A DNA stretch of 36,642 bases from the sequence record DRR723986_9195; one strand, 5' to 3'. The notes beneath the pieces are model-generated. The model made no database searches and was not told the origin of the DNA. It saw nothing but the letters and a program-made list of their open reading frames with translations. The position numbers and the translations under genes are program-made. The first letter of the stretch is position 1. The number at the start of each line of letters is the position of its first letter. Positions 20,665 through 34,345 of the stretch are shown piece by piece.

Positions 20665-22206
20665 ATGGAAACTCTCTCTTCACTGGCCGACGGCTTCATC
20701 ATCGCGCTGACCTGGCAGAACCTGCTGCTGGCCCTGCTCGGCTGTTTTCTCGGCACCATCATGGGCGCCCTGCCGGGCCTCGGCCCGTCCAATGGCGTCG
20801 CTATCCTCATCCCGCTTGCCTTCACGCTCGGTCTTGGCGCTACGCCGTCATTGATCCTGCTGACGTCGGTCTATTACGGCGCCATGTACGGCGGGCGTAT
20901 CTCGTCGATCCTCTTGAACATTCCCGGTGACGAACCGGCGATGATGACCTGTCTCGACGGTTACCCGATGGCCCAGCAGGGCCGCGCAGGCGAGGCCCTC
21001 TCGCTGTCGGGCGTTGCCTCCTTCGTTGGTGCCTTCCTGGCCACCTGGGGCCTGATCCTGCTGGCACCGCAGCTGGTCAAGATCGCGCTTCTGTTCGGTC
21101 CGGCGGAATATTTCGCCCTGTTCACCCTGGCCTTCGCCACCCTGGGCGGCGTTGCCTCGACCAACCAGGCCAAGACCGCCTTCGCAGCCGCGCTCGGCAT
21201 TGGCCTTGCCACCGTCGGCGTCGACACCCAGACAGGCGTGCCGCGCTTCACCTTCGGCGAAGTGCACCTCTACGACGGGATCGACTTTCTGGTTGCCATC
21301 GTCGGCCTGTTTGCTCTGTCCGAGGTCTTCCTGTTCCTGGAACACCGCCACGGCAATGCCGACGCCAACTCCAGCAAGGTTACCGTCGGCCGGCTGATGC
21401 CCAGCTTCTCGCTGCTGAAGTCCTGCACCCCGACCATGCTGCGCACCAGTCTGCTCGGCTTCATTGCCGGCGTTCTGCCTGGTGCCGGCGCGTCGCTCGG
21501 CTCGTTCATCTCCTATACGTTCGAGAAGAAACTGGTCGACAAGGAAGGCACCTTCGGCAAGGGCGATCCGCGCGGTGTGGCCGCGCCTGAAGCCGGCAAC
21601 AACGCCGCCGCGGGCGGTGCGCTGGTGCCGATGCTCGCACTCGGCGTTCCCGGTTCCGGGACCACGGCCGTGCTGCTGGCGGTTCTGCTGGCGCTCAACA
21701 TCACCCCGGGCCCGCTGCTGTTCACCCAGCAGCCGGATGTGGTCTGGGGTCTGATCGCGGCCCTGTTCATTGCCAACTTCATGCTGCTGGCCATGAACAT
21801 CCCGATGATCGGTCTCTTCACCCGCGTCCTGTTGATCCCGCCGCGCATCCTCATGCCCATCGTGGCCATGGTCAGCTTCGTCGGCATCTACGGCATCTCC
21901 GGGTCCTCCTTCGACCTTCTGGTCATGGTCGGCTTCGGTGTGCTGGGCTGGGTGCTGCGCAAGCTGGACGTGCCGCTGGTCCCGATCATCCTTGGCACGC
22001 TGCTCGGCAACGCCATGGAAAACAACCTGCGCCGCGCGATCACCATCAGCAACGGCGACTGGTTCACCCTGATCGACAGCCCGCTGTCGCTGACCCTGTG
22101 GAGCATGGCCATCATCGGCTTCGTCCTGCCGATCATCTTCGGCAAGGTCCTGAAAGCCCGCATGCGTCACATGAAGAAGGACGAAGAGGGCTCGGTCATC
22201 GACTGA
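20665..22206 (+). CDS. tctA: Tripartite tricarboxylate transporter large membrane subunit
   Basis: GALPGLG, YYGAMYGG, LLNIPG, APEAGNNA and LGVPGS motifs. Confidence 0.93.
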   Translation: METLSSLADGFIIALTWQNLLLALLGCFLGTIMGALPGLGPSNGVAILIPLAFTLGLGATPSLILLTSVYYGAMYGGRISSILLNIPGDEPAMMTCLDGYPMAQQGRAGEALSLSGVASFVGAFLATWGLILLAPQLVKIALLFGPAEYFALFTLAFATLGGVASTNQAKTAFAAALGIGLATVGVDTQTGVPRFTFGEVHLYDGIDFLVAIVGLFALSEVFLFLEHRHGNADANSSKVTVGRLMPSFSLLKSCTPTMLRTSLLGFIAGVLPGAGASLGSFISYTFEKKLVDKEGTFGKGDPRGVAAPEAGNNAAAGGALVPMLALGVPGSGTTAVLLAVLLALNITPGPLLFTQQPDVVWGLIAALFIANFMLLAMNIPMIGLFTRVLLIPPRILMPIVAMVSFVGIYGISGSSFDLLVMVGFGVLGWVLRKLDVPLVPIILGTLLGNAMENNLRRAITISNGDWFTLIDSPLSLTLWSMAIIGFVLPIIFGKVLKARMRHMKKDEEGSVID

Positions 22207-22230
22207 TCGCTGCCAACACCGCAAGAAACG

Positions 22231-22266
22231 AAAACGCCCTCTCCTTCCGGATGAGGGCGTTTTTAT
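22231..22266. terminator. Probably bidirectional rho-independent terminator
   Basis: AAAACGCCCTC...GAGGGCGTTTT with A and T runs on either side, between convergent genes. Confidence 0.8.
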
Positions 22267-22378
22267 TTGCGGACGTCTCACCGCCGCCATTCCCGATGGT
22301 CCGAAGCGAAGCTGCCACCCAGCGGGAAACCAGGTGCAAGGTGCCAGTCAAAAATGCTTCAGATTTGAGAAGACGAAC

Positions 22379-23953
22379 TCAGCTAAACCACCAGCGCTCC
22401 GTAGCGCGCAGACCGTCGAGCGGCCAGTTTGCGGCGACTTTTTCCGGATGACTGACCTTGTCGCTGAGTGCCATCACATAGCTTGCGAACATGGGGATGA
22501 TGGTGCCGCCATCGGTCCTGACGATGTTCTGCATCTCGCGATACATATCCGCGCGCTTTGCTTCGTCGAGTTCGGAGCGCGCTTCGCTCAGAAGCCGGTT
22601 GAAGCGCTCGTTGTCCCAATAGGTGTCGTTCCACGGCGCCCCGGCAGCGTAGGCGAGCGTGAAGGTCGCGTCCTCGGTCGGTCGTCCGGTCCAGTAGACC
22701 GCGCAGAACGGCTTCTTCATCCAGACATCGGACCAGTAACCGTCATTGGGCTCGCGCACCGGCTGAATGTTGATACCGGCCGCCTCTGCCTTGCTTGAAT
22801 AGAGCACTGCTGCATCGACAGCGCCGCCAAAAGCAGCGTCGGAGGCGGAGAGTTGCAGATCCAGCGAGCTGAGGCCCGCCTGTTTCAGATAATATTTCGC
22901 CTTGTCCGGATCATAACTGGTCTGCTCAAGATCGGCTGCGTAAAAGCGGTTGGCCGGGCTGATCGGGTGGTCGTTGCCAACCGAGCCATAGCCAAAGAGG
23001 ATCTTGTCGACGAGTTCCTGCCGGTCGATGGCGTATTTCAAGGCCATGCGGACATTGTTGTCGTTGAAGGGCGCTGCCCGTGTGTCCATGGCGAACGTAT
23101 AGTGCTGACCACCGGTCGCCGAGACGATCTGGACACCCGGAGCGCGCTGGAACAGATGCACCGTTTTCAGATCCACCTGGTCCACGACGTCGACATTTCC
23201 GGTCATCAGTGCAGCCTGCCGCGCTGCCGGATCAACAATGGCCATCAGGACAACCGCATCGAAATGGGCACGGTCCGATTTCCAGTAATTCGGATTGCGC
23301 GTGAGCTCGGCGATGTAGCCGGGTTTGAAGTTGGTGACTTTGTACGGACCGCACCCATCACCGCTGGTGGGATCGATCTTGCCATCCGATGACTTCAGGA
23401 TCGGCATATGGTAGTCGCTCACCACATAAGGGAAATCGGCGTTGCCTGCATCCAGCGTGAAAACGACGGTATCGCCGTCGCTGGCAATGTCGGTAACCGG
23501 TGCAAGGAAGGGCTTGGCAGCCGAACTGCTGTCCGCGCCGCGGTGATAGTTGATCGAGGCAACGACATCATCGGGTGTCACGGTACCGCCGCTGTGGAAC
23601 TCGACACCGCTGCGGATCTTGAACGTCCAGACCTTTGCATCGGGAGATGAAGTCCAGCTTTCAGCCACTTCCCCGACGAGAGATCCGTCCGAGGCGATCT
23701 CCACCAGGTAGCCGTTGCGGGCAAAGGCGAAGACCTGCGAATAGGTGTTGTCCCAAACTGCCGGATCGTACGTGTCGTTGGTATTGCCCGAGGCAATCCC
23801 GAAGCGGATCGTTCCGCCTTTTTTGGGCTGGGCAACGGCCGGCCCGATACCAAGAGACGATACGAGAGCCGTGGCGCCGAGCGCAGCAGTTCCCCCGAGA
23901 ACGCTTCGCCGCGAGACTGCCAGTCGGTTTTGCGGCGTAAAGGCCTCTCCCAT
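22379..23953 (-). CDS. Family 5 (OppA/DppA-like) ABC substrate-binding protein with a Tat signal
   Basis: SRRSVL Tat motif; WTFKIRSGVEFHSG, GCGPY, RNPNYW and VRMALKYAIDR; AGGAG upstream of ATG 23953. Confidence 0.88.
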   Translation of the reverse strand: MGEAFTPQNRLAVSRRSVLGGTAALGATALVSSLGIGPAVAQPKKGGTIRFGIASGNTNDTYDPAVWDNTYSQVFAFARNGYLVEIASDGSLVGEVAESWTSSPDAKVWTFKIRSGVEFHSGGTVTPDDVVASINYHRGADSSSAAKPFLAPVTDIASDGDTVVFTLDAGNADFPYVVSDYHMPILKSSDGKIDPTSGDGCGPYKVTNFKPGYIAELTRNPNYWKSDRAHFDAVVLMAIVDPAARQAALMTGNVDVVDQVDLKTVHLFQRAPGVQIVSATGGQHYTFAMDTRAAPFNDNNVRMALKYAIDRQELVDKILFGYGSVGNDHPISPANRFYAADLEQTSYDPDKAKYYLKQAGLSSLDLQLSASDAAFGGAVDAAVLYSSKAEAAGINIQPVREPNDGYWSDVWMKKPFCAVYWTGRPTEDATFTLAYAAGAPWNDTYWDNERFNRLLSEARSELDEAKRADMYREMQNIVRTDGGTIIPMFASYVMALSDKVSHPEKVAANWPLDGLRATERWWFS

Positions 23954-24142
23954 TCCATGGTTCTCCTTGATGAGCGTGATAGGTTTCAGTTCAACTTGTT
24001 TGCCGGTACGGACGGCCAGTCGCGAAAACCGGAAATTCGGCAAATTCCGCCCGCCCGGCCCGGCGGTGTCACCATCGGGCCTTGCATGATTTTGTTTCGA
24101 GTGTCCGCTGCCTTGCGTCCGCAGCCTGGGCCGTGCCGGTGC

Positions 24143-24898
24143 CTAGCTGGCGTAGTTCGAGCCTTCGTCGTCCAGAATGGCTTTCAATTCGGCGAAGTGG
24201 TCGCGCCCAAGGCCGGGATAATTTTCAATTTCCTGCGCGGTCTTCTCGGCAATCTCAGGGCTGAGAATGCGCAGTGGTTTTCCGGTCTGCAGTGCCCGGA
24301 TGTAGGTCTCTGCAGCACGTTCGAAATGATAAAGGCGGTCAAAGGCTTCCGCGACAGTGCTGGCGACGACCAGAACGCCGTGATTGCCCATGATCAGCAC
24401 CTTGATCTTCGGGTCGCGAAGCAACGTCGCGCAGCGTTCGCCTTCTTCCTCGAAAGCAAGCCCGCCATAGTTCTCGTCAATTGCGAAGCGGCCATAAAAA
24501 GTCGCGGTGTTCTGGTCGATCGGCGGCAGAGTGCTGTCGGCAAGGCAGGCCAGAACCGTGGCATGGACCGAATGCACATGCATGACGCAGCGCGCATGTG
24601 GGCATTGCCGGTGGATGGCGCCATGCAATCCCCAGGCAGTCGGGTCCGGAGCGTTTGGGTGTTCCAGCGTTTGCGGGTCATTTGCATCAAGCAAAATCAG
24701 GTCGGATGCCCTGATCCGGCTGAAATGCCGCTGGCGGGGGTTTACCAGAAAAGCCGTGCCTTCGTCATTGACGGCGAGGCTGAAATGATTTGCGACAGCT
24801 TCGTGCATTCCAAGACGCTCGGTCCAGCGGAATGCTGCCGCCAGGTCGATCCGCTCCGCCCAGTGAGTGATGTTCGAATGTTCTGCAACACGCAGCAT
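24143..24898 (-). CDS. Class II aldolase/adducin-family metalloenzyme
   Basis: RIDLAAAFR, NHFS, LHGAIH, CVMHVHS and MGNHG metal-binding motifs; GAGGGAG RBS. Confidence 0.85.
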   Translation of the reverse strand: MLRVAEHSNITHWAERIDLAAAFRWTERLGMHEAVANHFSLAVNDEGTAFLVNPRQRHFSRIRASDLILLDANDPQTLEHPNAPDPTAWGLHGAIHRQCPHARCVMHVHSVHATVLACLADSTLPPIDQNTATFYGRFAIDENYGGLAFEEEGERCATLLRDPKIKVLIMGNHGVLVVASTVAEAFDRLYHFERAAETYIRALQTGKPLRILSPEIAEKTAQEIENYPGLGRDHFAELKAILDDEGSNYAS

Positions 24899-24975
24899 GC
24901 ACTGTCTCCCTCGCTTTCTCTTCGACGCTAGGGAGCGCTTCCAACATTGACAAACAATATATTCGATGGCGTTGC

Positions 24976-24990
24976 ATTAATAAAATTAAT
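24976..24990. promoter_or_regulatory. LysR T-N11-A box
   Basis: ATTAAT-AAA-ATTAAT palindrome (TTA-N7-TAA) in the AT-rich divergent aldolase/LysR intergenic region. Confidence 0.6.
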
Positions 24991-25028
24991 ACGCATTATG
25001 TCAGTTGATGAATGAGTGAGGTGCACGC

Positions 25029-25907
25029 ATGAAGACGGTTGGATTGCCTCCGCTGGCCTGGTTGCGGGCATTCGAGGCAACTGCGCGCCATCTCAGCTTC
25101 ACCCGTGCCTCGCAGGAATTGAACCTGACCCAGTCCGCGGTCAGCCAGCATGTACGCAGCCTCGAGACCTTGCTCGGCTGCAGTCTTTTTGTGCGCAAGA
25201 CGCGTGCCCTGGAACTGACGCTCGAAGGGGAAACCTATCTGCCGAGCCTGCGTGAAGCCTTCGACCTGATCACAAGGAGCACGCAGCTTGTCACCGGCAG
25301 TGACCTGGGGCGCAACCTGACGCTTCAGTGCAATCTGGCCTTTTCCGTCTATTGGCTGGCCCCGCGCCTTCGCCGGCTTTACGAAGAATTTCCCTGGCTG
25401 ACGCTCAATATCGTGACATCGATCTGGGACACCGAAAAGCGCGCGGCCGATGCCTCTCTGGAAATCCGCTTCGCCCGTCCGGAGGACATGCCGACCGCCG
25501 CCATTCGGCTTGCCGAGGAAAAATGCTATCCGGTCTGCTCACCCGGCCTGCCTGAAGAAGAGCGCTCACTGGAGAGCGGCAGGCTGTTCGACTGCGCGGG
25601 CATCACCGGCTCCTGGTCCGGTTGGATGAACTCGCAAGGCAGGTCCTTTGCAAGGGAAGCCGAAGTCAATCTGGCGTCGACCTATGTGATCGCGATTTCG
25701 GCAGCCTTGAACGGTGCGGGCCTCGTCCTCGCACATGACACGCTCGTCGGTGACCTCCTCCGAAGCGGTGACCTTGTTCGTCCCTTTGAACATCAGGCGC
25801 CCCTGAGTGAAGCCTACTTCGTCCGGACCCCGCCACCTTACGCGGAAACGCCTGCCTCCAAGGTGTTTTTGGACTGGATCCAGAAAGAGCGGGCTTCTGC
25901 GCGCTGA
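25029..25907 (+). CDS. LysR-family regulator, GcvA-like
   Basis: LPPLAWLRAFEATARHLSFTRASQELNLTQSAVSQHVRSLE helix-turn-helix; WLAPRL and PVCSP. Confidence 0.9.
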   Translation: MKTVGLPPLAWLRAFEATARHLSFTRASQELNLTQSAVSQHVRSLETLLGCSLFVRKTRALELTLEGETYLPSLREAFDLITRSTQLVTGSDLGRNLTLQCNLAFSVYWLAPRLRRLYEEFPWLTLNIVTSIWDTEKRAADASLEIRFARPEDMPTAAIRLAEEKCYPVCSPGLPEEERSLESGRLFDCAGITGSWSGWMNSQGRSFAREAEVNLASTYVIAISAALNGAGLVLAHDTLVGDLLRSGDLVRPFEHQAPLSEAYFVRTPPPYAETPASKVFLDWIQKERASAR

Positions 25908-26237
25908 TCTGCAATCCAGCGCTGCCAGCGCAAGCAAAGGCGCTTTCACAAGAGCGCAATAGTCAGAGTTTTTGAATACGGCAACGCGCCCAAGGCAATA
26001 GGTTATCCAGGGCCCGGATCTTACCGCGCAGCCACGCCGTGACCCACCCGGAATACCGGTGGAGGGGGCATCATACCCTCCCCCTGAGCCCTCAAAAACG
26101 GCCAAAACCACTCCCCCAAACTCAAAACCGCCGCCTTCAAGTCAAGTGACATGCCGCACAAGTGCGACCTGCAGGACGCGTGATATCCAGCCTCTCAACG
26201 AGAACTCAAGTGATACCGAAATAGAGGTGTAAATCTG

Positions 26238-27308
26238 ATGCACGTTCAAATCAGAAAACCAAAGAACCCCATCCCCAGGAACTACTTTCCCCACAACCGT
26301 GTGGAACAAAAGCGCGACGGCGTCTGGGTGAGGTGCGGGGTCGTTATGCCTGTCGGCGCCGGCGACAGCTGGGAGACGATCGGCAAGTTCTGCGACGGCA
26401 TCCCTGCCGAAGAAGTGGCCTATGCCAACTTCGAGACCTATGACCCCGCCGAGATCAACTGGTACCTGAGAGAATATGTCGGCTGCCACAAGCCTGGCCC
26501 TCGCGGCTTCAACTTCATGTTCGATGGCGCCAAGCCTGGTCTTATCCTGGCTCCGTTCCGGGATGCGCTGATCGGCGATGTGGTGGAACGCGCGCACAGG
26601 CAGGAGGAGCGCCGTCAGCGCCGCACCATCCTCGACCGACGATGGGACAACCGCAATATCGACATTCCGGAGGGTGAAAAACTCGTCGTCCAGGCACGCG
26701 AAATGATTTACCGCCGCGTCCAGAACCACGTCCCGAACTCGCAGGATTTCGATCTGCAAAAGGAATTGACGGGATTTCTCGTGGGCGAGGCGATTGACGG
26801 TGGCGGTGGCCTCCTCACGCCACACAAGGCGCTCTTGAAGACCCTACTCAAGCCCCTCAAGGAACTCCATCCGGAAAACGAGCGGGTTCGTAAGCTGCGC
26901 AAGAAGTATTATGAAGGGTTCGCAAACGGGGTGGCGGCGGCGCTCTTTCCAGGGCACGACTACGCGCTTCACGACAAGGTCCCGGGAGAGAGGTTCTTCT
27001 ACAATGCCGGTCTCGAGCATGGTCGCCAGATGAGCGGTCTGCAACGTTACCAGTTCGTGATGGGCCTGATGGAACGCGCACGCCGTTACGGTCTGCGGGG
27101 AGGCAACCCGATCTATCAGCAGAAAGCCAACTTCTCGAAGGGTTTTGGCGGACGCGCCGTTGCGTTCTATCTCGCACGGGAATTGTCTTCCAGCCGTTTG
27201 CTGGAACGCAATATCCACGAGACACCGCTCAAGGAAGACATTGTGGATGCAGTAAAGGACACCCTCACGGACAAAGCCAAGGAAGCTGTCGGTATCCCGT
27301 CCTTCTGA
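26238..27308 (+). CDS. Hypothetical protein with a degenerate LysM-like N-terminal segment
   Basis: 356-aa ORF with a GAGGT RBS and coding-like codon usage; VGAGDSWETIG...GIPAEEVAYAN resembles the LysM V-x2-GD-S/T-L-x2-IA pattern; remainder unrecognised. Confidence 0.7.
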   Translation: MHVQIRKPKNPIPRNYFPHNRVEQKRDGVWVRCGVVMPVGAGDSWETIGKFCDGIPAEEVAYANFETYDPAEINWYLREYVGCHKPGPRGFNFMFDGAKPGLILAPFRDALIGDVVERAHRQEERRQRRTILDRRWDNRNIDIPEGEKLVVQAREMIYRRVQNHVPNSQDFDLQKELTGFLVGEAIDGGGGLLTPHKALLKTLLKPLKELHPENERVRKLRKKYYEGFANGVAAALFPGHDYALHDKVPGERFFYNAGLEHGRQMSGLQRYQFVMGLMERARRYGLRGGNPIYQQKANFSKGFGGRAVAFYLARELSSSRLLERNIHETPLKEDIVDAVKDTLTDKAKEAVGIPSF

Positions 27309-27402
27309 GACGGGCTACTGCTGTCTTTAGGCGACTGCTCAGGACGTGCAGAAGGCGGCACCGATCAAAATGCGAGCACAGAAATATTCATCTTGTGCGT
27401 GT

Positions 27403-27430
27403 TGAGGGGTGCGCAGAGGCCCCCCCCTCA
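27403..27430. terminator. Hairpin between convergent genes, possible terminator
   Basis: TGAGGGG...CCCCTCA stem; no strong U-tract. Confidence 0.4.
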
Positions 27431-27452
27431 CTTCCTGCGGAGACCCTGTCGG

Positions 27453-27899
27453 TTACTTCTCGGCCGCCAGGCTTTGCCAAACCTGCCACGCCTCGTCGAA
27501 CGCCGGTGTTCCGCCTTCCGACTGGATATAGGCGCGGACATAGGCCTGACGGCCTGCAATTTGTTTGGGAATGGTGAGGGTATATTCCGGGCCGCCCATG
27601 CCGCCTTCGACCGTCGTCAAGGTGTGCGGGGCGGGATCGGTCCCTTTGGTGTCGACCCCGCCGGCGACCGGCTGCGGCGCGGTGGTCCAAATGGCGATTT
27701 CATCGACTTCGCGCAGAGCCTGTTCCGGCAAAAGCAGAATGTGATCGGCACCTGTTTCGACCTTGCGTCCTTCGGGTACGCCAAACTGCAGGCCGTCGAC
27801 AACTTCAGTCTTCATCTCAATCACTCTTTGCTGCTCGGCATTGCAGGACGCCAGAATAAACGGAACCAGAAAGGGAAATATTTTCAGCCACTTCACCAT
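27453..27899 (-). CDS. tsi3: Tsi3-like T6SS immunity lipoprotein
   Basis: Lipobox ILASC after a hydrophobic signal; C-terminal GGMGGPEYTL...K....R...V.A..QSEGGTPAFDEAW matches my recollection of P. aeruginosa Tsi3 (GGSAGSEYRL...QSEDGEPTFALAW); start overlaps the effector stop. Confidence 0.8.
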   Translation of the reverse strand: MVKWLKIFPFLVPFILASCNAEQQRVIEMKTEVVDGLQFGVPEGRKVETGADHILLLPEQALREVDEIAIWTTAPQPVAGGVDTKGTDPAPHTLTTVEGGMGGPEYTLTIPKQIAGRQAYVRAYIQSEGGTPAFDEAWQVWQSLAAEK

Positions 27900-29164
27900 G
27901 ATATCTTGGCGCCTGACATGTCGGAATGAGCTTCACCGACAAAGCTTCCCCAACCGGTCACCCTATCGTCCCACGGCCGTGAGGTGTATTCGGACCCAAG
28001 CGCCGCAACGTTGTCAGCAGGCCAGTTCCTGGCATGCTGCGCATAGGCGGCAAAATTGATACCGGGAAACGCAGCAGCGGTTCTTGGCAAGTCCGTTTTT
28101 GTCTTTTTGCCGACGAGATTGGCAACATACCTGATGTATTTCGCAACAGCGAAGATGTTGAACTCGTCGCACGTCAGAAGCGTCGCGATCTGCGCGCCGT
28201 CGAGACCTTGCCTCCGTTTGTGTTCAAGCAACCCGGAGAACAGATCCGTACGCGCGACAGTGTCGTCGCGGACCTGACCAAGGCCTACAGAGGTTGTGCG
28301 CCTTGAGACCGAATGCGTCGCCGCGGTGTAGTCCAGCATGTCTTCGTTTTGAGATTGATCACGCTGTTCCGCCAAGACGATCGCTCCTATGACTTCCGGC
28401 GTCAGATTATAGGTTTTTGCAGCAGCGTTCATCACGGCTCCCCGGGACGGGCGACCGTTCAGGTAAATCGGCTCAAACAATGTAGAGATCGGCAAACTCG
28501 TAATGCGCGCGGCCTGCCGAAGACGTTCACTGGCGGAACTGGGAACAGTCAGACCATTCCAGAGCGGATTGGAGTAACTGCGCGACACGGGACCGGATGC
28601 GCCAGGATCACCTTGCGGATTTGTCTTCTGCTCATAGAGGATACGTGCCTGGTCAAACGCAGAAACGCGGTGATTGAAGATGTCGCATCCCGTTGCACCG
28701 CTGCCTGAGAAAGACGCGGATGCACTTGAGGGAATAGTCGCACTGGTGATGGGTTTCTTGGTGCTGATCGAAAGCAAGCCGTACTTGCGCATGCTGTCGG
28801 CAAGATCGTTTGCAAGCCCGAACACCTTTGCCGGATTGCCAAATTGCGCGTTGAGGATTGAAGCATCCCGGTCGAAAAAGAAGAAACCAGCCAGGTTGTT
28901 TTCGATGCTGGAAACTGAGACAGGCCCGGCTTTCGCTGCCATCAGCATTACCGCGTCGTAAAGCGAAGGAGCGCTTTGCTGATTGAAGTACCTTGTAAAA
29001 AAATCTCTCAGAACTTTCCCGGATTGCAATTGCGTGATTGTTGCATCGAACCTCGTGTCACGTTCAAGAAGTTCCAGAGCTTTTGCCCGCTCCCCGTCGG
29101 TAACCCATCGGAAGACATCTCCCAGTTCCAGGAGTTTGATGACCTCATCGCCAACAACAGTCAT
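27893..29164 (-). CDS. tse3: Tse3-like (Tge1 family) peptidoglycan muramidase effector
   Basis: FSGSGATG, YSNPL, PISTLF, IGAIVLAEQRDQ, TSVGLGQV, DEFNIFA.AKYIRYVANL, RNWP.DNV.AL and SEYTSRPWDD match my recollection of P. aeruginosa Tse3; no signal peptide; ATG 29164 chosen, TTG 29176 is an alternative. Confidence 0.85.
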   Translation of the reverse strand: MTVVGDEVIKLLELGDVFRWVTDGERAKALELLERDTRFDATITQLQSGKVLRDFFTRYFNQQSAPSLYDAVMLMAAKAGPVSVSSIENNLAGFFFFDRDASILNAQFGNPAKVFGLANDLADSMRKYGLLSISTKKPITSATIPSSASASFSGSGATGCDIFNHRVSAFDQARILYEQKTNPQGDPGASGPVSRSYSNPLWNGLTVPSSASERLRQAARITSLPISTLFEPIYLNGRPSRGAVMNAAAKTYNLTPEVIGAIVLAEQRDQSQNEDMLDYTAATHSVSRRTTSVGLGQVRDDTVARTDLFSGLLEHKRRQGLDGAQIATLLTCDEFNIFAVAKYIRYVANLVGKKTKTDLPRTAAAFPGINFAAYAQHARNWPADNVAALGSEYTSRPWDDRVTGWGSFVGEAHSDMSGAKISW

Positions 29165-29386
29165 GATTTTCTTCAACCCCTCTATTGCTCGGGCTGGTCA
29201 GGACAGAAATTGTTTTCCAATCCAAAAATTAAAATAAATCAACTAGTTAACAAACTTTCAGAATCCAACCCTAATTGATTGCCGACCCAGTTACAACTCT
29301 AAGGGGCGCAATCGCAATGAGCGGAGCCATACCCGGCCGGTATTTGAACAACCTTGCTGGAGACGTCGGAAAACGCCCCTCCCCGT

Positions 29387-30130
29387 TCAGATCTCCGTCC
29401 GCATCCGGTAGCCCGGGGCGAAGATCAGGCGGACATGGGTGATCGGCAGGGGGCCGGTCCAGGTGATGCGTTCCATCGCAAAGAGGGCTGCGCCCGTGGA
29501 GGCATCCAGTTTGCGCGACAGGGTCTTGTCGGCATTGACGGCGAAGAAGGAAATGTCGCCGTGGCTGTAGGGCGCGTTGTGCACCAGCCACTCGTTGGCG
29601 CTGACGTCCTCGAACGTCATGTCACGCGCAGCAGGAGCTGCTTCCAGGTTGATGTAGCGTTCTTCGAAGGCATAAGGCCGGTCGTCTGCAAAGTGCAGCG
29701 TCTTTAAAAACAGGACATCCGGGCCGAGCGTCACCTGGAACGCGCCGTGCAACATGGGCGGCAGGGGCCGGAGATCCTTTTCCAGAAGGCTGTGCCGGTA
29801 GGTGCGGCCAAGCGCTTCGACTTCTTCACGCAGGATCGGAATGGTGAGCGTCGCGCGCTGAGGCGGGTTGAGCGCAACACGCGTTCCCGCCCGGCGCTTG
29901 CGCACCACAAGCCCGCTTTCGGCCAAGTCCCGGAGAGCACGGTTGACGGTGGTGCGGGCGCAGCCGAACTCTTCCGCAAGATCGGCCTCATGGGGGATCT
30001 GCTCCCCCGGCTGCCAGATCCGGTCATGGATCCGCCGAAGGAGTTCTTCGCGAATGCCCGTCCAGGAATTTGTGTCCGCAAGCGCCAAGTCGTCTACCCG
30101 TTCAAGTCGTTCTTCAAAGTCGTTCTTCAC
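29387..30130 (-). CDS. hutC: Histidine utilisation repressor (GntR/UTRA)
   Basis: WQPGEQIPHEADLAEEFGCARTTVNRAL winged HTH, EERYIN in the UTRA domain; GTGA overlap with hutF; hut context. Confidence 0.85.
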   Translation of the reverse strand: MKNDFEERLERVDDLALADTNSWTGIREELLRRIHDRIWQPGEQIPHEADLAEEFGCARTTVNRALRDLAESGLVVRKRRAGTRVALNPPQRATLTIPILREEVEALGRTYRHSLLEKDLRPLPPMLHGAFQVTLGPDVLFLKTLHFADDRPYAFEERYINLEAAPAARDMTFEDVSANEWLVHNAPYSHGDISFFAVNADKTLSRKLDASTGAALFAMERITWTGPLPITHVRLIFAPGYRMRTEI

Positions 30131-31506
30131 AGTCTGGCGCGCAACGAGGCCATGGTGGCCCGGTATTTCGCGCGGATGGCGTTGCCTTTTACATGGTTTC
30201 CGCCGGAAACAACATGCCGGCCGGCGGACCAGACCTCAGCGACCATCCGGTCGTCACCGGCAAAGATCCAGGCATCCAGAATTTCGTCGCCTTCCCGGCC
30301 TTCCAGGTCGATGGCGGTGCCATCCAGTGCGATGAGATCGGCGAGCGATCCTTCCGATATCCTGCCCGCCGCACGCCCCGCCGCCTGCGCACCACCGGCC
30401 ACGACGCTGTCGAAGAGGACCCGACCGGTGGACTTTTCCTTCGTTGCAACAGAAGCCCGGCAGGTATCCCGCAGGCGCTGGGAATATTCCAGCGTGCGCA
30501 GCTCTTCGGAGAGCGCGATGCGGATGTTGGAATCCGAGCCGACGCCGAAGCGGCCGCCCGCGGCCAGGTAGTCGACGCCGTCGAAGATCCCGTCGCCGAG
30601 GCTGGATTCGGTGAGCGGACAAAGCCCCGCGACGGCCCCGGTCGCAGCAAGACCGGCGGTCTCCTGCGAGGTCATCTGCGTGCAGTGGATTAGGCACCAG
30701 TTTTCTGAAACCGCGTGGTTGGCAAGCAGCCATTCCACCGGGCGCTGCCCCGAGGCCGCCAGAACCTCGTCCACTTCCGGGATCTGCTCGGCAAGATGCA
30801 TGTGCAGCGGGTTGCCGCCGGCAAGGGCAACGGCCTTCTTCAGACTGTCGGCATCCACGGCCCTCAGTGAATGCGGGGCAACGCCGATAACCGCATCATC
30901 CGGCAGGGACTTGAGCGCCTCAGACGCAAGCTCGTGCAGTTTCTGGAAACGGTCGAAGTCGTTGCCAAAGCGGATCTGTCCGGCAGCCAATGGGCGTCCG
31001 TCGCAGCCGCCGAACTGGTAATGAACCGGCAGATGCGTGAGGCCGATGCCGGTATCGGAAGCAGCCGCCATGATGCGGTCCGACATTTCCGCCAGATTGG
31101 CGTAGGGCGCCCCGCCCGGCTGATGATGCAGATAGTGGAACTCGCCAACGGCGGCATAACCTGCCTCCAGCATTTCCATCTGCACGAAGGCGGCAATCGC
31201 CTCCACATCTTCCGGCGTCAGGGCGTCCAGAAAACGGAACATGATCTGGCGCCAGGTCCAGAAACTGTCGCGGCTTTCGCTACCGCGCCGCTCGCTCATG
31301 CCCGCCATGGCCCGCTGGAACGCATGGCTGTGCAGGTTGACCGGGGCCGGCAGAAGAATGCCGACGCGTACGCCGATTGGCTGCGCATCTCTTTTAACTG
31401 AGGCGATCCGGCCGTCCGGCCCGATCGAGACAGCGACATTTTCCGCCCAGCCGTCGGCCAGAAGCGCCTTTTCCGCAAAAACCGTCGCGCCAGAAACTGT
31501 CGACAT
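30127..31506 (-). CDS. hutF: Formiminoglutamate deiminase
   Basis: NLHSHAFQRAMAG, DSFWTWR, EFHYLHH, APHSLRAV, HMHLAEQ and GSDSN. Confidence 0.93.
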   Translation of the reverse strand: MSTVSGATVFAEKALLADGWAENVAVSIGPDGRIASVKRDAQPIGVRVGILLPAPVNLHSHAFQRAMAGMSERRGSESRDSFWTWRQIMFRFLDALTPEDVEAIAAFVQMEMLEAGYAAVGEFHYLHHQPGGAPYANLAEMSDRIMAAASDTGIGLTHLPVHYQFGGCDGRPLAAGQIRFGNDFDRFQKLHELASEALKSLPDDAVIGVAPHSLRAVDADSLKKAVALAGGNPLHMHLAEQIPEVDEVLAASGQRPVEWLLANHAVSENWCLIHCTQMTSQETAGLAATGAVAGLCPLTESSLGDGIFDGVDYLAAGGRFGVGSDSNIRIALSEELRTLEYSQRLRDTCRASVATKEKSTGRVLFDSVVAGGAQAAGRAAGRISEGSLADLIALDGTAIDLEGREGDEILDAWIFAGDDRMVAEVWSAGRHVVSGGNHVKGNAIRAKYRATMASLRARL

Positions 31507-31522
31507 GCCGTCTTTTCCTCCG

Positions 31523-31552
31523 TTGACACGTTAATATGTGCATGCATATTAT
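31523..31552 (+). promoter_or_regulatory. hutI promoter (TTGACA...TATTAT) overlapped by a HutC-like operator
   Basis: TTGACA at 31523-31528 and TATTAT at 31547-31552; palindrome TAATATG-TGCATG-CATATTA (31532-31551) resembles the HutC TGTA-N2-TACA-type box. Confidence 0.7.
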
Positions 31553-31586
31553 CTTATATCGCAATCTAATCAAGCCGGAGATGGAC

Positions 31587-32792
31587 GTGCTGAAACGCCT
31601 CCTCACAAACGCCAAGCTGGCAACGCTCACCGCAAACGGAGAGCCGTACGGCCTGATTGAGGACGGCGCACTGGTGATCGAAGGCGGGCGGATCGCCTGG
31701 ATCGGCAAGGCCACAGACCTGCCGTCTCATTATGCGTCGCTCAGCGCGGATGATATCGGCGGACGGCTGGTGACCGCGGGGCTGATCGACTGTCATACCC
31801 ATGTTGTTTTCGGCGGCGACCGGGCACGTGAATTCGAAATGCGCCTTCAAGGTGCAACGTACGAAGAAGTGGCCCGGGCCGGTGGCGGCATCGTTTCCAC
31901 GGTCAAGGCAACGCGCGCAGCCAGCGAAAAGCAGCTGCTGGAAGCTGCCCTGCCGCGTGTCGATGCCCTGATTGCCGAGGGCGTCACCGCCATCGAGATC
32001 AAGTCCGGCTATGGCCTCGACCGGGAAACGGAGCTGCGCATGCTGCGCACCGCCCGCAAGATCGGCAAGCTGCGCCCGATCACCGTCAAAACCAGCTTCC
32101 TGGGCGCCCATGCCATTCCGGCCGAATACAAGGACAAGGCCGACCTCTATCTGGAAAAGGTCTGCCTGCCGACGCTGGAAGCGGCTCATGCCGAGGGACT
32201 GGTGGATGCCGTGGACGGTTTTTGCGAAGGCATCGCCTTTTCGCCGGAACAGATCGGCAAGGTATTCGACAAGGCCAAGCAGGTCGGCCTGCCGGTGAAG
32301 CTGCATGCAGAGCAACTGTCCAACCTGAAGGGCGCGGCCCTTGCCGCTTCCTATGGCGCCCTTTCCGCCGACCATCTGGAATACCTGGATGAAGCCGGCG
32401 TCAAGGCGATGGCCGAAAGCGGGTCTGTCGCTGTGCTTTTGCCGGGCGCTTTCTACACCTTGCGCGAAACGCAGTTCCCGCCGCTTGATGTTTTGCGCAA
32501 GCACAATGTGCCCGTCGCGCTGGCAACGGACTGCAATCCGGGTTCATCCCCCCTCGCCTCGTTGCTCCTGACCATGAACATGGGCTGCACCTTGTTCCGC
32601 ATGACACCGGAAGAAGCGCTGGCCGGCGTCACCCGCGAAGCGGCGAAGGCGCTTGGTCTGGACGATCAGGGCACGCTGGCACCCGGCAAACGGGCGGATC
32701 TGGCTGTCTGGAACGTCAGCCACCCGGCCGAGCTTTCCTACCGGATCGGCTTCAACTCCCTCTTCAAACGCATTTTCGGAGGCTCTGAATGA
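31587..32792 (+). CDS. hutI: Imidazolonepropionase
   Basis: [37 protein letters not shown] and [13 protein letters not shown] 31587 is 6 nt after GGAG (ATG 31581 is an alternative). Confidence 0.93.
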
Positions 32793-34345
32793 GCGCCCTT
32801 ACCCTGACACCGGGCTCCGTGACCCTGGCGGATCTGGAACGCATCTACCGGGAAGAGCTGCCAGTGCGCATCGACCGCACGGCGGAAGCTGCGATCAACC
32901 TTGCGTCCGAACGAGTTGCCAAGGCGGCCCGTGGCAGCGAGGCCGTTTACGGCGTCAACACCGGCTTCGGCAAGCTGGCCAGCGTCAAGATCGCCCCCGA
33001 GGACACTGCAACCCTGCAGCGGAACCTGATCCTTTCCCATTGTTGCGGCGTCGGCGAACCGCTCGACAAGACCACCACCCGCCTGATGATGGTGCTGAAG
33101 CTGCTCTCGCTTGGCCGAGGTGCCTCCGGTGTCCGCTTCGAAGTGATGAAGCTGATCGAGGATTGCCTTGAAAGAAACGTCACGCCGATGGTTCCCTCGC
33201 AAGGGTCTGTCGGTGCATCCGGCGATCTTGCGCCGCTGGCCCATATGACGGCTGTCCTGATCGGTGAAGGTGAAGCTGATTTTGGCGGCACGCGCATGCC
33301 CGGTGGTGAAGCCCTTGCCAAGGCGGGCCTGACCCCGGTCGTGCTTGGCCCCAAGGAAGGCCTTGGGCTGATCAATGGCACGCAGTTTTCGACCGCCTGT
33401 GCGCTCACCGGCCTGTTCGACGCCTGGCGTCTGGCCGAAGCGACCCTGATGACTGCCAGCCTTTCCACCGACGCCATCATGGGCTCGACCGCACCGCTCC
33501 TGCCGGAAATCCATGAACTGCGCGGCCATCGCGGCCAGATCGAAGTGGCAAGGGCCATGCGCGCAATCATGGACGGCTCGGAAATCCGCGAAAGCCACCG
33601 CGAGGGCGACACCCGCGTGCAGGACCCTTACTGCATCCGCTGCCAGCCCCAGGTTGCCGGTGCCTGTGTCGATCTGCTCCGCATGGCGGCCCGCACGCTC
33701 GAGATCGAAGCCAATGCGGCAACCGACAATCCGCTGGTACTGATCGATGCCGACCGGATCGTTTCCGGTGGCAATTTCCATGCCGAACCGGTTGCCTTTG
33801 CTGCCGACCAGATTGCACTCGCCATTGCCGAACTCGGTGCGATTTCCCAGCGCCGTGTCGCGCTCATGGTCGACCCGACGCTTTCCTTCGACCTGCCGCC
33901 GTTCCTCGCCAAGGATCCGGGCCTGAACTCGGGCATGATGATCGCGGAAGTGACGACCGCCGCCCTGATGAGCGAGAACAAGCATCTCGCCAATCCGTGC
34001 TCGACGGATTCCACGCCGACCAGTGCCAACCAGGAAGACCATGTTTCCATGGCCGCCCACGGAGCTCGCCGTCTTGCCCGCATGAACGCCAACCTCAGCC
34101 AGATCTTGGGTGTGGAACTTCTGTGTGCCGCCGAAGGCATCGAGCACCGCGCCCCGCTGAAGACCAGCGCTTCGCTGCAAACGGTGATGGGCACTCTTCG
34201 CGGTGTCGTTCCCTCCCTGGAAAAGGACCGCTACATGGCACCGGACCTGGAAACGGCAGCCGGCCTGATCCGCAGCCGCAAGCTGGTCTCGGCGATTTCC
34301 GCCGGCCACATGATCACGCTGGGAGATGCCCATGCAGCCGGTTGA
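32789..34345 (+). CDS. hutH: Histidine ammonia-lyase
   Basis: [11 protein letters not shown]-forming [35 protein letters not shown] and NQEDHVSM. Confidence 0.95.

Follow-up and report, generated by a model that had tools for sequence, protein, structure and literature searches.

The window analysed here, a 36,642-nucleotide stretch of DNA from sequence record DRR723986_9195, carries on its minus strand two overlapping genes that encode homologs of the muramidase effector Tse3 and its immunity lipoprotein Tsi3. The reference pair, Tse3-Tsi3 (also called Tge1-Tgi1; PA3484-PA3485), belongs to the H1 type VI secretion system (H1-T6SS) of Pseudomonas aeruginosa and has been solved as 3WA5, 4LUQ, 4M5F, 4N7S, 4N80 and 4N88. 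In the window, the effector gene (27893..29164) encodes a protein of 423 amino acids and 46.0 kDa, and the immunity gene (27453..27899) encodes a lipoprotein of 148 amino acids. The order and coupling of the two genes match those of the reference pair.

The effector and immunity genes

The effector frame, which stops at 27893, may start at the ATG at 29164 or at a TTG at 29176, the latter giving a protein of 427 residues. The ATG is favoured because the relatives begin with Met-Thr, residues M1 and T2 being nearly invariant among 28 aligned relatives, and the TTG with its four extra residues was rejected since the relatives start at the ATG. The absence of a signal peptide was judged by Kyte-Doolittle hydropathy over the first 40 residues. 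The N-terminus (MTVVGDEVIKLLELGD...) has no hydrophobic core, with a top 12-residue mean of 1.22 as compared to 2.25 for the smaller protein. The 90% cluster of the effector contains 60 member sequences, and 12 of the 15 among the members listed have the full 423 residues.

A sequence search of the PDB aligns residues 21-414 of the effector with residues 21-398 of the P. aeruginosa Tse3 chain 3wa5_A (E 3.3e-67), and all six distinct solved Tse3 sequences were matched. Like Tse3, the effector has two domains over this range. The catalytic SLT-fold domain (residues 152-349; 28118..28711, minus strand) matches Pfam family PF22115 (T6SS_Tse3_cat) over positions 1-189 of the 189 in the profile, with 148.1 bits against a cut-off of 27 (E 3.7e-43). 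The N-terminal helical domain (residues 20-98; 28871..29107, minus strand) is placed by the PDB alignment to Tse3, which starts at residue 21, and by a sub-threshold match to PF22120 (T6SS_Tse3_N). A scan of the NCBIfam library with the effector returned no effector model. The fold had been described as goose-lysozyme-like in the initial annotation, a term that has to be replaced, as the solvers of Tse3 call it an SLT fold and goose-type lysozymes appear only among its structural neighbours (PMC3792639).

Residues were mapped by pairwise alignment with the P. paraeruginosa Tse3 (locus L063), which has the 408 residues of the numbering used in PMC3792639 and to which the effector is only 39.8% identical. 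Glu250, the catalytic residue of Tse3 (PMC3792639), corresponds to Glu266 (codon 28367..28369, minus strand). This residue is located within an LAEQRDQ motif, AEQRDQ being the motif of Glu250 in Tse3, and is invariant in the 28 aligned relatives. The main text of PMC3792639 gives N181, D253, Q254, E258, D262, S275, Q280, E375, S378 and D382 as Ca2+ ligands of Tse3. All ten ligand side chains of sites Ca1-Ca3 are identical in the effector, where they correspond to N199, D269, Q270, E274, D278, S292, Q297, E392, S395 and D399, so that 11 of 11 catalytic and Ca2+-binding residues are kept. The EYTSRPWDDR loop (residues 392-401; 27962..27991, minus strand) is the counterpart of the EF-hand-like Ca3 site, with E375 at E392, S378 at S395 and D382 at D399.

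The immunity protein begins with MVKWLKIFPFLVPFILAS followed by a cysteine, as read from the translation, and thus contains a lipoprotein signal peptide (27843..27899, minus strand) that ends in the lipobox ILAS-C, with the cysteine at position 19 (LAS-C, Cys19). The cysteine column is common to most of 25 aligned Tsi3 relatives, and the solved Tsi3 aligns a cysteine at the same position. The NCBIfam model for Tsi3, NF038331, scores 95.6 bits on the protein against a cut-off of 45 (E 2.6e-27), and Pfam PF22211 scores 33 bits against a cut-off of 26. An AlphaFold2 model that draws on 25 relatives reached a mean pLDDT of 86.8 and is consistent with the beta-sandwich fold of Tsi3. Tsi3 chains take each of the first five ranks in its PDB search (E 1.1e-7 to 7.4e-7, TM 0.75-0.79). 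After these, the fold neighbours of the model (27456-27899) are BT_1490 and the PsbP proteins of photosystem II (E 3e-4 to 1e-2, TM about 0.45-0.5).

The sequence identity between the immunity protein and the Tsi3 of P. paraeruginosa is only 26.6%. In P. aeruginosa, Arg60 of Tsi3 forms salt bridges to Glu250 and Asp253 of Tse3, and its loss abolishes binding (PMC3792639). This arginine is kept as R63 and is invariant in the 25 relatives. The contact residues E103, Q124, E126 and P130 are kept as E105, Q126, E128 and P132, which together with R60 makes five of the seven residues named in the text of PMC3792639. The protein thus resembles Tsi3 in its modelled beta-sandwich, its lipobox cysteine, its essential arginine and its QSE motif.

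The stop codon of the effector gene and the start codon of the immunity gene share a 7-nucleotide overlap, ATGGTGA (27893..27899, minus strand). The overlap is identical in a relative from Erythrobacter (locus L010), whose immunity protein also has the same first residues, MVKW. When 55 related loci were searched with an iterated hidden Markov model (HMM) seeded with the window Tsi3, a Tsi3-like reading frame was found adjoining the effector in 32 of them, and the effector-immunity layout seen here is the usual one of the family. The initial annotation, which was made from the letters of the window alone, had proposed an effector of about 423 residues without a signal peptide whose stop overlaps the start of a 148-residue lipoprotein, and had read both as homologs of Tse3 and Tsi3 with an intact catalytic glutamate. 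All of this is borne out, and in PDB, Pfam and NCBIfam both reading frames show similarity to the reference pair far beyond chance. The motifs that it had named also lie where it had placed them: YSNPL at residues 197-201, LAEQRDQ with its glutamate at 28367-28369, LGQV at residues 295-298, and EYTSRPWDD with E392 and Y393 at 27986-27991.

The GC content, about 0.62 otherwise, drops to 0.53-0.58 over the two genes, and upstream of the effector gene lies an AT-rich leader or promoter region (29165..29386, minus strand; GC 0.53). A promoter and terminator scan of 27200-29500 returned no promoter-like site and no sigma-70 consensus, and the two terminator-like sites in this range were not above shuffles. 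Fourteen rows from RNA libraries contain 37-55% of the sampled words of the locus, and four of these libraries were mapped (X1, X2, X6 and X9). In two studies with otherwise short contigs, a single contig spans both genes (27138-29277 in X2 and 26953-29276 in X6). The upstream ends of these contigs are one base apart and 112-113 nucleotides upstream of the effector start codon, which weakly hints at a bicistronic transcript with a 5' end near 29277. The other two contigs, of 62.5 kb in X9 and 3.5 kb in X1, are uninformative on transcripts.

The secretion system in the nearest genome

The window itself contains no gene of a T6SS. None of the 14 T6SS proteins of the nearest genome, G001, matches it in a tblastn search (E<=1e-3), which agrees with the earlier observation that hcp, vgrG, PAAR and tss genes are missing from the window. 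The nearest genome has 59% of the sampled 31-mers in common with the window and is 99% identical to it over 22000-33000. It encodes an identical effector (100%; C1:3796340-3797608) and a Tsi3 that is 96.6% identical to that of the window.

Hcp, TssC and VgrG each have a single match in this genome, and all three belong to one T6SS cluster (C1:5932896-5960220) that comprises PpkA, PppA, TssM, TssL, TssK, a DUF6931 gene, VgrG, TssA, TssB, TssC, Hcp, TssE, TssF, TssG, ClpV and PAAR. The cluster contains 12 of the 13 core parts; TssJ was not found in it. It resembles the H1-T6SS of P. aeruginosa in having PpkA, PppA and ClpV, and in an Hcp whose best solved relative is PA0085, the Hcp1 of that system (E 9.1e-55). 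Hcp1 binds Tse3, and its residues L28, A29, T59, S115 and T122 are reported to be needed for secretion of Tse3 (PMC8262886). According to a hand mapping of the alignment, four of these five residues are identical in the Hcp of the nearest genome, and A29 is replaced by a serine. The effector gene is on the same 6.15-Mb contig, at a distance of 2.14 Mb from the cluster, an arrangement that fits the earlier suggestion of an effector that is cargo for a T6SS encoded elsewhere.

At the edge of the cluster, the PAAR gene is adjoined by a gene for a 660-amino-acid protein with a C-terminal M23 peptidase domain (G001:C1:5960316-5962301; L004:8317-10302, minus strand), which is a candidate for a second wall-targeting effector. 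A second PAAR-domain frame in the same genome, of 409 amino acids, is located 1.6 Mb from the cluster (C1:4352962-4353162).

The island and its distribution in the genus

The pair lies in a variable island (22207..29386) between tctA, which stops at 22206, and hutC (29387-30130). The island contains a SBP_bac_5 gene, a class II aldolase gene, a gene for a LysR regulator, a reading frame of 356 amino acids, and the genes for Tsi3 and Tse3. In 41 genomes of the genus, DNA matches to the window break off just after tctA (at about 22207-22265) and resume at hutC (at about 29370-29400). The gap between the two genes measures 7.2 kb in the window, about 256 bp in genome G034 (L078), 14.3 kb in G004 and 4-16 kb in other species. 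In G004 (L077, G004:C34:121400-136400) two IS110 transposase genes occupy it together with genes for a heavy-metal ATPase, TerC, TauE and an FGE-sulfatase-domain protein. Within the genus, this intergenic site is a hotspot for insertions. No tRNA was found in the window, no integrase at the island and no meaningful flanking repeats in 21800-29600; the only clear hairpin is located 3' of tctA (22226-22268).

The effector is present in one of 37 species of the genus, the one represented by the nearest genome, and in none of the 24 further families sampled from the order, which makes one positive among 61 genomes. In the same panel, 27 of the 37 congeneric species have TssC. A T6SS is thus widespread among these species, and the effector is an addition in a single one of them.

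The 356-amino-acid reading frame (26238-27308, plus strand) lies inside the island, tail-to-tail with the Tsi3 gene and 144 bp from it. It matches no family in Pfam, NCBIfam or PHROG and has no signal peptide. Residues from about 38 to 110 form a LysM-like module that is common to 301 cluster representatives (E<=0.001), and three of ten scanned relatives pass the Pfam cut-off for LysM at this module. The remainder of the protein is helical. Its model (pLDDT 78.9) gave no PDB match, the best E value being 0.71. Full-length relatives are few, with five at E<=1e-30 and two among the 61 genomes of the panel, and no homolog was found in the other Tse3 loci. One relative with 78% identity is annotated as "uncultured Roseibium sp.", and for this reason the host of the window is probably Roseibium, an alphaproteobacterium.

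The family and the probable role of the pair

A protein search returned 185 relatives of the effector at E<=0.001 among 8000 scored candidates, and a tblastn search with one genome per species identified the 55 related loci, which are distributed over the Alpha-, Beta- and Gammaproteobacteria, Myxococcota, Acidobacteriota, Actinomycetota and others. At least 15 of the 55 loci are alphaproteobacterial. The initial annotation had emphasised a host far removed from Pseudomonas. The alphaproteobacterial host stands, but the lineage is less surprising than was implied, because the family spans many phyla and is not a Pseudomonas speciality. Since it is already modelled in Pfam and NCBIfam and has many relatives, the pair in the window is a further member of a known and widespread family.

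To place the window effector in this family, we inferred a quick tree from 36 near-full-length rows, with the 20 partial-match loci left out. The effector forms a clade with those of Erythrobacter (L010), Porphyrobacter (L012) and an uncultured marine alphaproteobacterium (L011), which is supported by an SH-aLRT value of 100 and is separated by a long stem (0.87) from the other 32 rows, including Pseudomonas. The window pair thus differs from those of Pseudomonas in its host and its clade as well as in interface residues on both sides. The three other effectors of the clade are 49-65% identical to that of the window, the closest being the one from Erythrobacter (65% in the tblastn search and 66% over 406 columns of the tree alignment). 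They are named only "hypothetical protein" in the sources searched. These loci resemble the window in several respects. The Erythrobacter locus, on a contig of only 3.9 kb, has a Tsi3 with 56% identity to that of the window in addition to the shared overlap, and no T6SS gene was found among the Pfam-scanned neighbors of L011 (htpG, asparaginase and rlmN) and L012 (between carA and carB). They differ from the window in coming from another alphaproteobacterial order and in having other insertion sites, and L012 also differs in that the HMM search found no Tsi3-like reading frame beside its effector. In this locus, the effector (L012:6941-8290) is followed after a gap of 318 nucleotides by a reading frame of 173 amino acids (L012:8608-9126), which has no Pfam family and was missed by the Tsi3 HMM; it could be a different or highly diverged immunity gene.

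The presence of TssC was assessed in the genomes of 50 of the 55 loci (L048, L051, L060, L061 and L062 were left out). TssC was found in 33 of the 50, including those of the three relatives that share a clade with the window effector. A Tsi3-like neighbor is present in 28 of the 33 TssC-positive loci versus 2 of the 17 TssC-negative loci, most of which are from Actinomycetota; these counts ignore kinship and are descriptions, not tests. The 17 genomes without TssC indicate that the Tse3 fold is not tied to the T6SS everywhere. Tse3-domain proteins in Actinomycetota, Myxococcota and others without TssC (loci L030, L036, L039-L043, L049, L054 and others; proteins P0037, P0043, P0050 etc.) often have long N-terminal extensions or an eCIS_core domain and mostly lack a Tsi3 neighbor. 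The eCIS_core domain (PF13699, DUF4157) occurs in 21 of the 120 relatives listed, and the T6SS is apparently not the only contractile injection system that uses the muramidase module. These proteins contain PF22115, as does the window effector, and often PF22120. The window effector is unlike them in having neither an eCIS_core domain nor an N-terminal extension and in having a Tsi3 neighbor, which is missing from 15 of the 17 loci without TssC. The counts put the window pair into the part of the family that is linked to the T6SS and paired with Tsi3. Other glycoside hydrolases that are delivered by a T6SS, act on peptidoglycan and are countered by periplasmic immunity proteins are Tge2 (with Tgi2), Tge3 and the C-terminal domain of VgrG-3 of Vibrio cholerae (PMC4832377). 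They belong to different families and were not matched by the window proteins in the PDB or Pfam searches.

We conclude, with a probability of roughly 0.8, that the two genes are an orphan Tse3-Tsi3 (Tge1-Tgi1) effector-immunity pair whose effector is most likely cargo of a T6SS encoded at a distance in the chromosome. Lacking a signal peptide, the effector would be synthesised in the cytoplasm and most likely loaded into the lumen of the Hcp1-like rings of the single T6SS of the cell, which would fire it into the periplasm of neighboring Gram-negative cells. In that compartment, the glycan backbone of the peptidoglycan would be cut by Glu266, next to which two Ca2+ ions would be bound. The lipoprotein would reach the periplasm by Sec/Lol export and remain anchored there, where it may plug the substrate groove of the enzyme, with Arg63 reaching Glu266 and Asp269, and would thereby protect the producer and its siblings.

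Several observations weigh against this conclusion. The match of the N-terminal domain to PF22120, at 23.4 bits, is under the cut-off of 27.2, although the PDB alignment to Tse3 nevertheless covers this region from residue 21. The binding of the two proteins is predicted from conserved residues, and some of the interface has changed: S99 and P62 of the P. aeruginosa Tsi3 are replaced by M101 and V65 in the immunity protein, and V176, V282 and M391 of Tse3 by serine, arginine and serine in the effector. As judged from the alignments, the core of the lock is conserved and its rim is altered on both sides. The T6SS of the window's own genome is presumed from that of the nearest genome, which also contains one phage-sheath-like gene (C1:91761, 31.9 bits). 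The effector, at 46.0 kDa, slightly exceeds the 44.4 kDa of Tse3, a protein described as the largest Hcp1 cargo known (PMC8262886). Finally, strand and expression level cannot be read from the RNA-library contigs, and DNA may be present in libraries of this kind.

A first alternative is a true Tse3-Tsi3 pair whose effector leaves the cell by a route other than Hcp, such as another contractile device, a VgrG- or PAAR-bound form, vesicles or lysis. The size of the effector, at or above the limit known for Hcp1 cargo (PMC8262886), and the phage-sheath-like gene of the nearest genome would fit such a route, as would the 17 of 50 family genomes without TssC and the relatives with PF13699, the latter showing that other systems do carry the catalytic module. 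However, PF13699 is missing from the window effector, whose alignment with Tse3 begins at residue 21, all three remaining clade members come from TssC-positive genomes, and the sole Hcp of the nearest genome is Hcp1-like. A search of that genome for PF13699 gave no match, but it was made without a positive control and is uninformative. Taken together, we consider an exit other than through Hcp improbable.

It is also conceivable that the cassette is kept mainly for defence, with the lipoprotein guarding against Tse3-type attack from neighbors and the effector silent or unexported. The orphan position of the pair, with no secretion gene in 36.6 kb, would be explained in this way. In the nearest genome, moreover, the immunity protein has diverged (96.6%) while the effector is 100% identical. 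An effector that had lost its role is hard to reconcile with a whole reading frame in which 11 of 11 catalytic and Ca2+ residues are kept, with the full length of 12 of the 15 listed members in a cluster of 60 sequences, and with RNA-library contigs that cover the effector gene and not just the immunity gene. A mainly defensive role is accordingly regarded as very improbable.

A muramidase gene followed by an overlapping gene for a small lipoprotein is also the layout of a phage lysis cassette, with an endolysin and a lipoprotein spanin, but such a cassette and a housekeeping wall enzyme with its inhibitor were both rejected as highly improbable, since three scanned proteins (the effector, the immunity protein and the 356-amino-acid neighbor) have no PHROG match, the scanned neighbors are transport, metabolic and regulator genes with no phage gene, tRNA or flanking repeat, the similarity of effector and immunity protein to the T6SS pair is full-length, and the effector lacks the signal peptide that a periplasmic enzyme needs.

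Within the preferred reading of an orphan Tse3-Tsi3 pair that serves a distant T6SS, a more detailed scenario is put forward only tentatively. The pair from this species, those of Erythrobacter and Porphyrobacter and that of one metagenome-assembled genome may represent a separate marine alphaproteobacterial lineage of Tse3-Tsi3, which may move between orders as a bare two-gene cassette without a mobility gene and enter housekeeping sites, namely next to the hut operon in the window and in the carA-carB interval in Porphyrobacter. The effector-immunity interface of this lineage may have been re-wired (S99 of Tsi3 to Met; V282, M391 and V176 of Tse3 to Arg, Ser and Ser), such that the immunity protein would not cross-protect against a Pseudomonas-type Tse3, and the effector, at 46 kDa, might be the largest Hcp-lumen cargo known.

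The literature searched, which covered few subscription journals, contained experimental work on the Tse3 family only from P. aeruginosa and no description of an alphaproteobacterial member, and the published work that we found is thus confined to one species while the family is spread over many phyla. The terms "Tse3-like" or "Tse3 homolog" occurred in a single paper of that literature, which deals with immunity proteins of a different type that resembles formylglycine-generating enzyme. For specialists on the T6SS, the findings presented here are unsurprising. The identification of the pair gives a named function to two genes that are unnamed or called "hypothetical protein" in the sources searched, and it reveals a predicted cell-wall-targeting weapon in one species of a marine, often host-associated genus, of which 36 other sampled species lack it. 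As 27 of the 37 species hold TssC, the genus offers a clean natural test case of how one acquired effector changes the competition among close relatives that share a T6SS.

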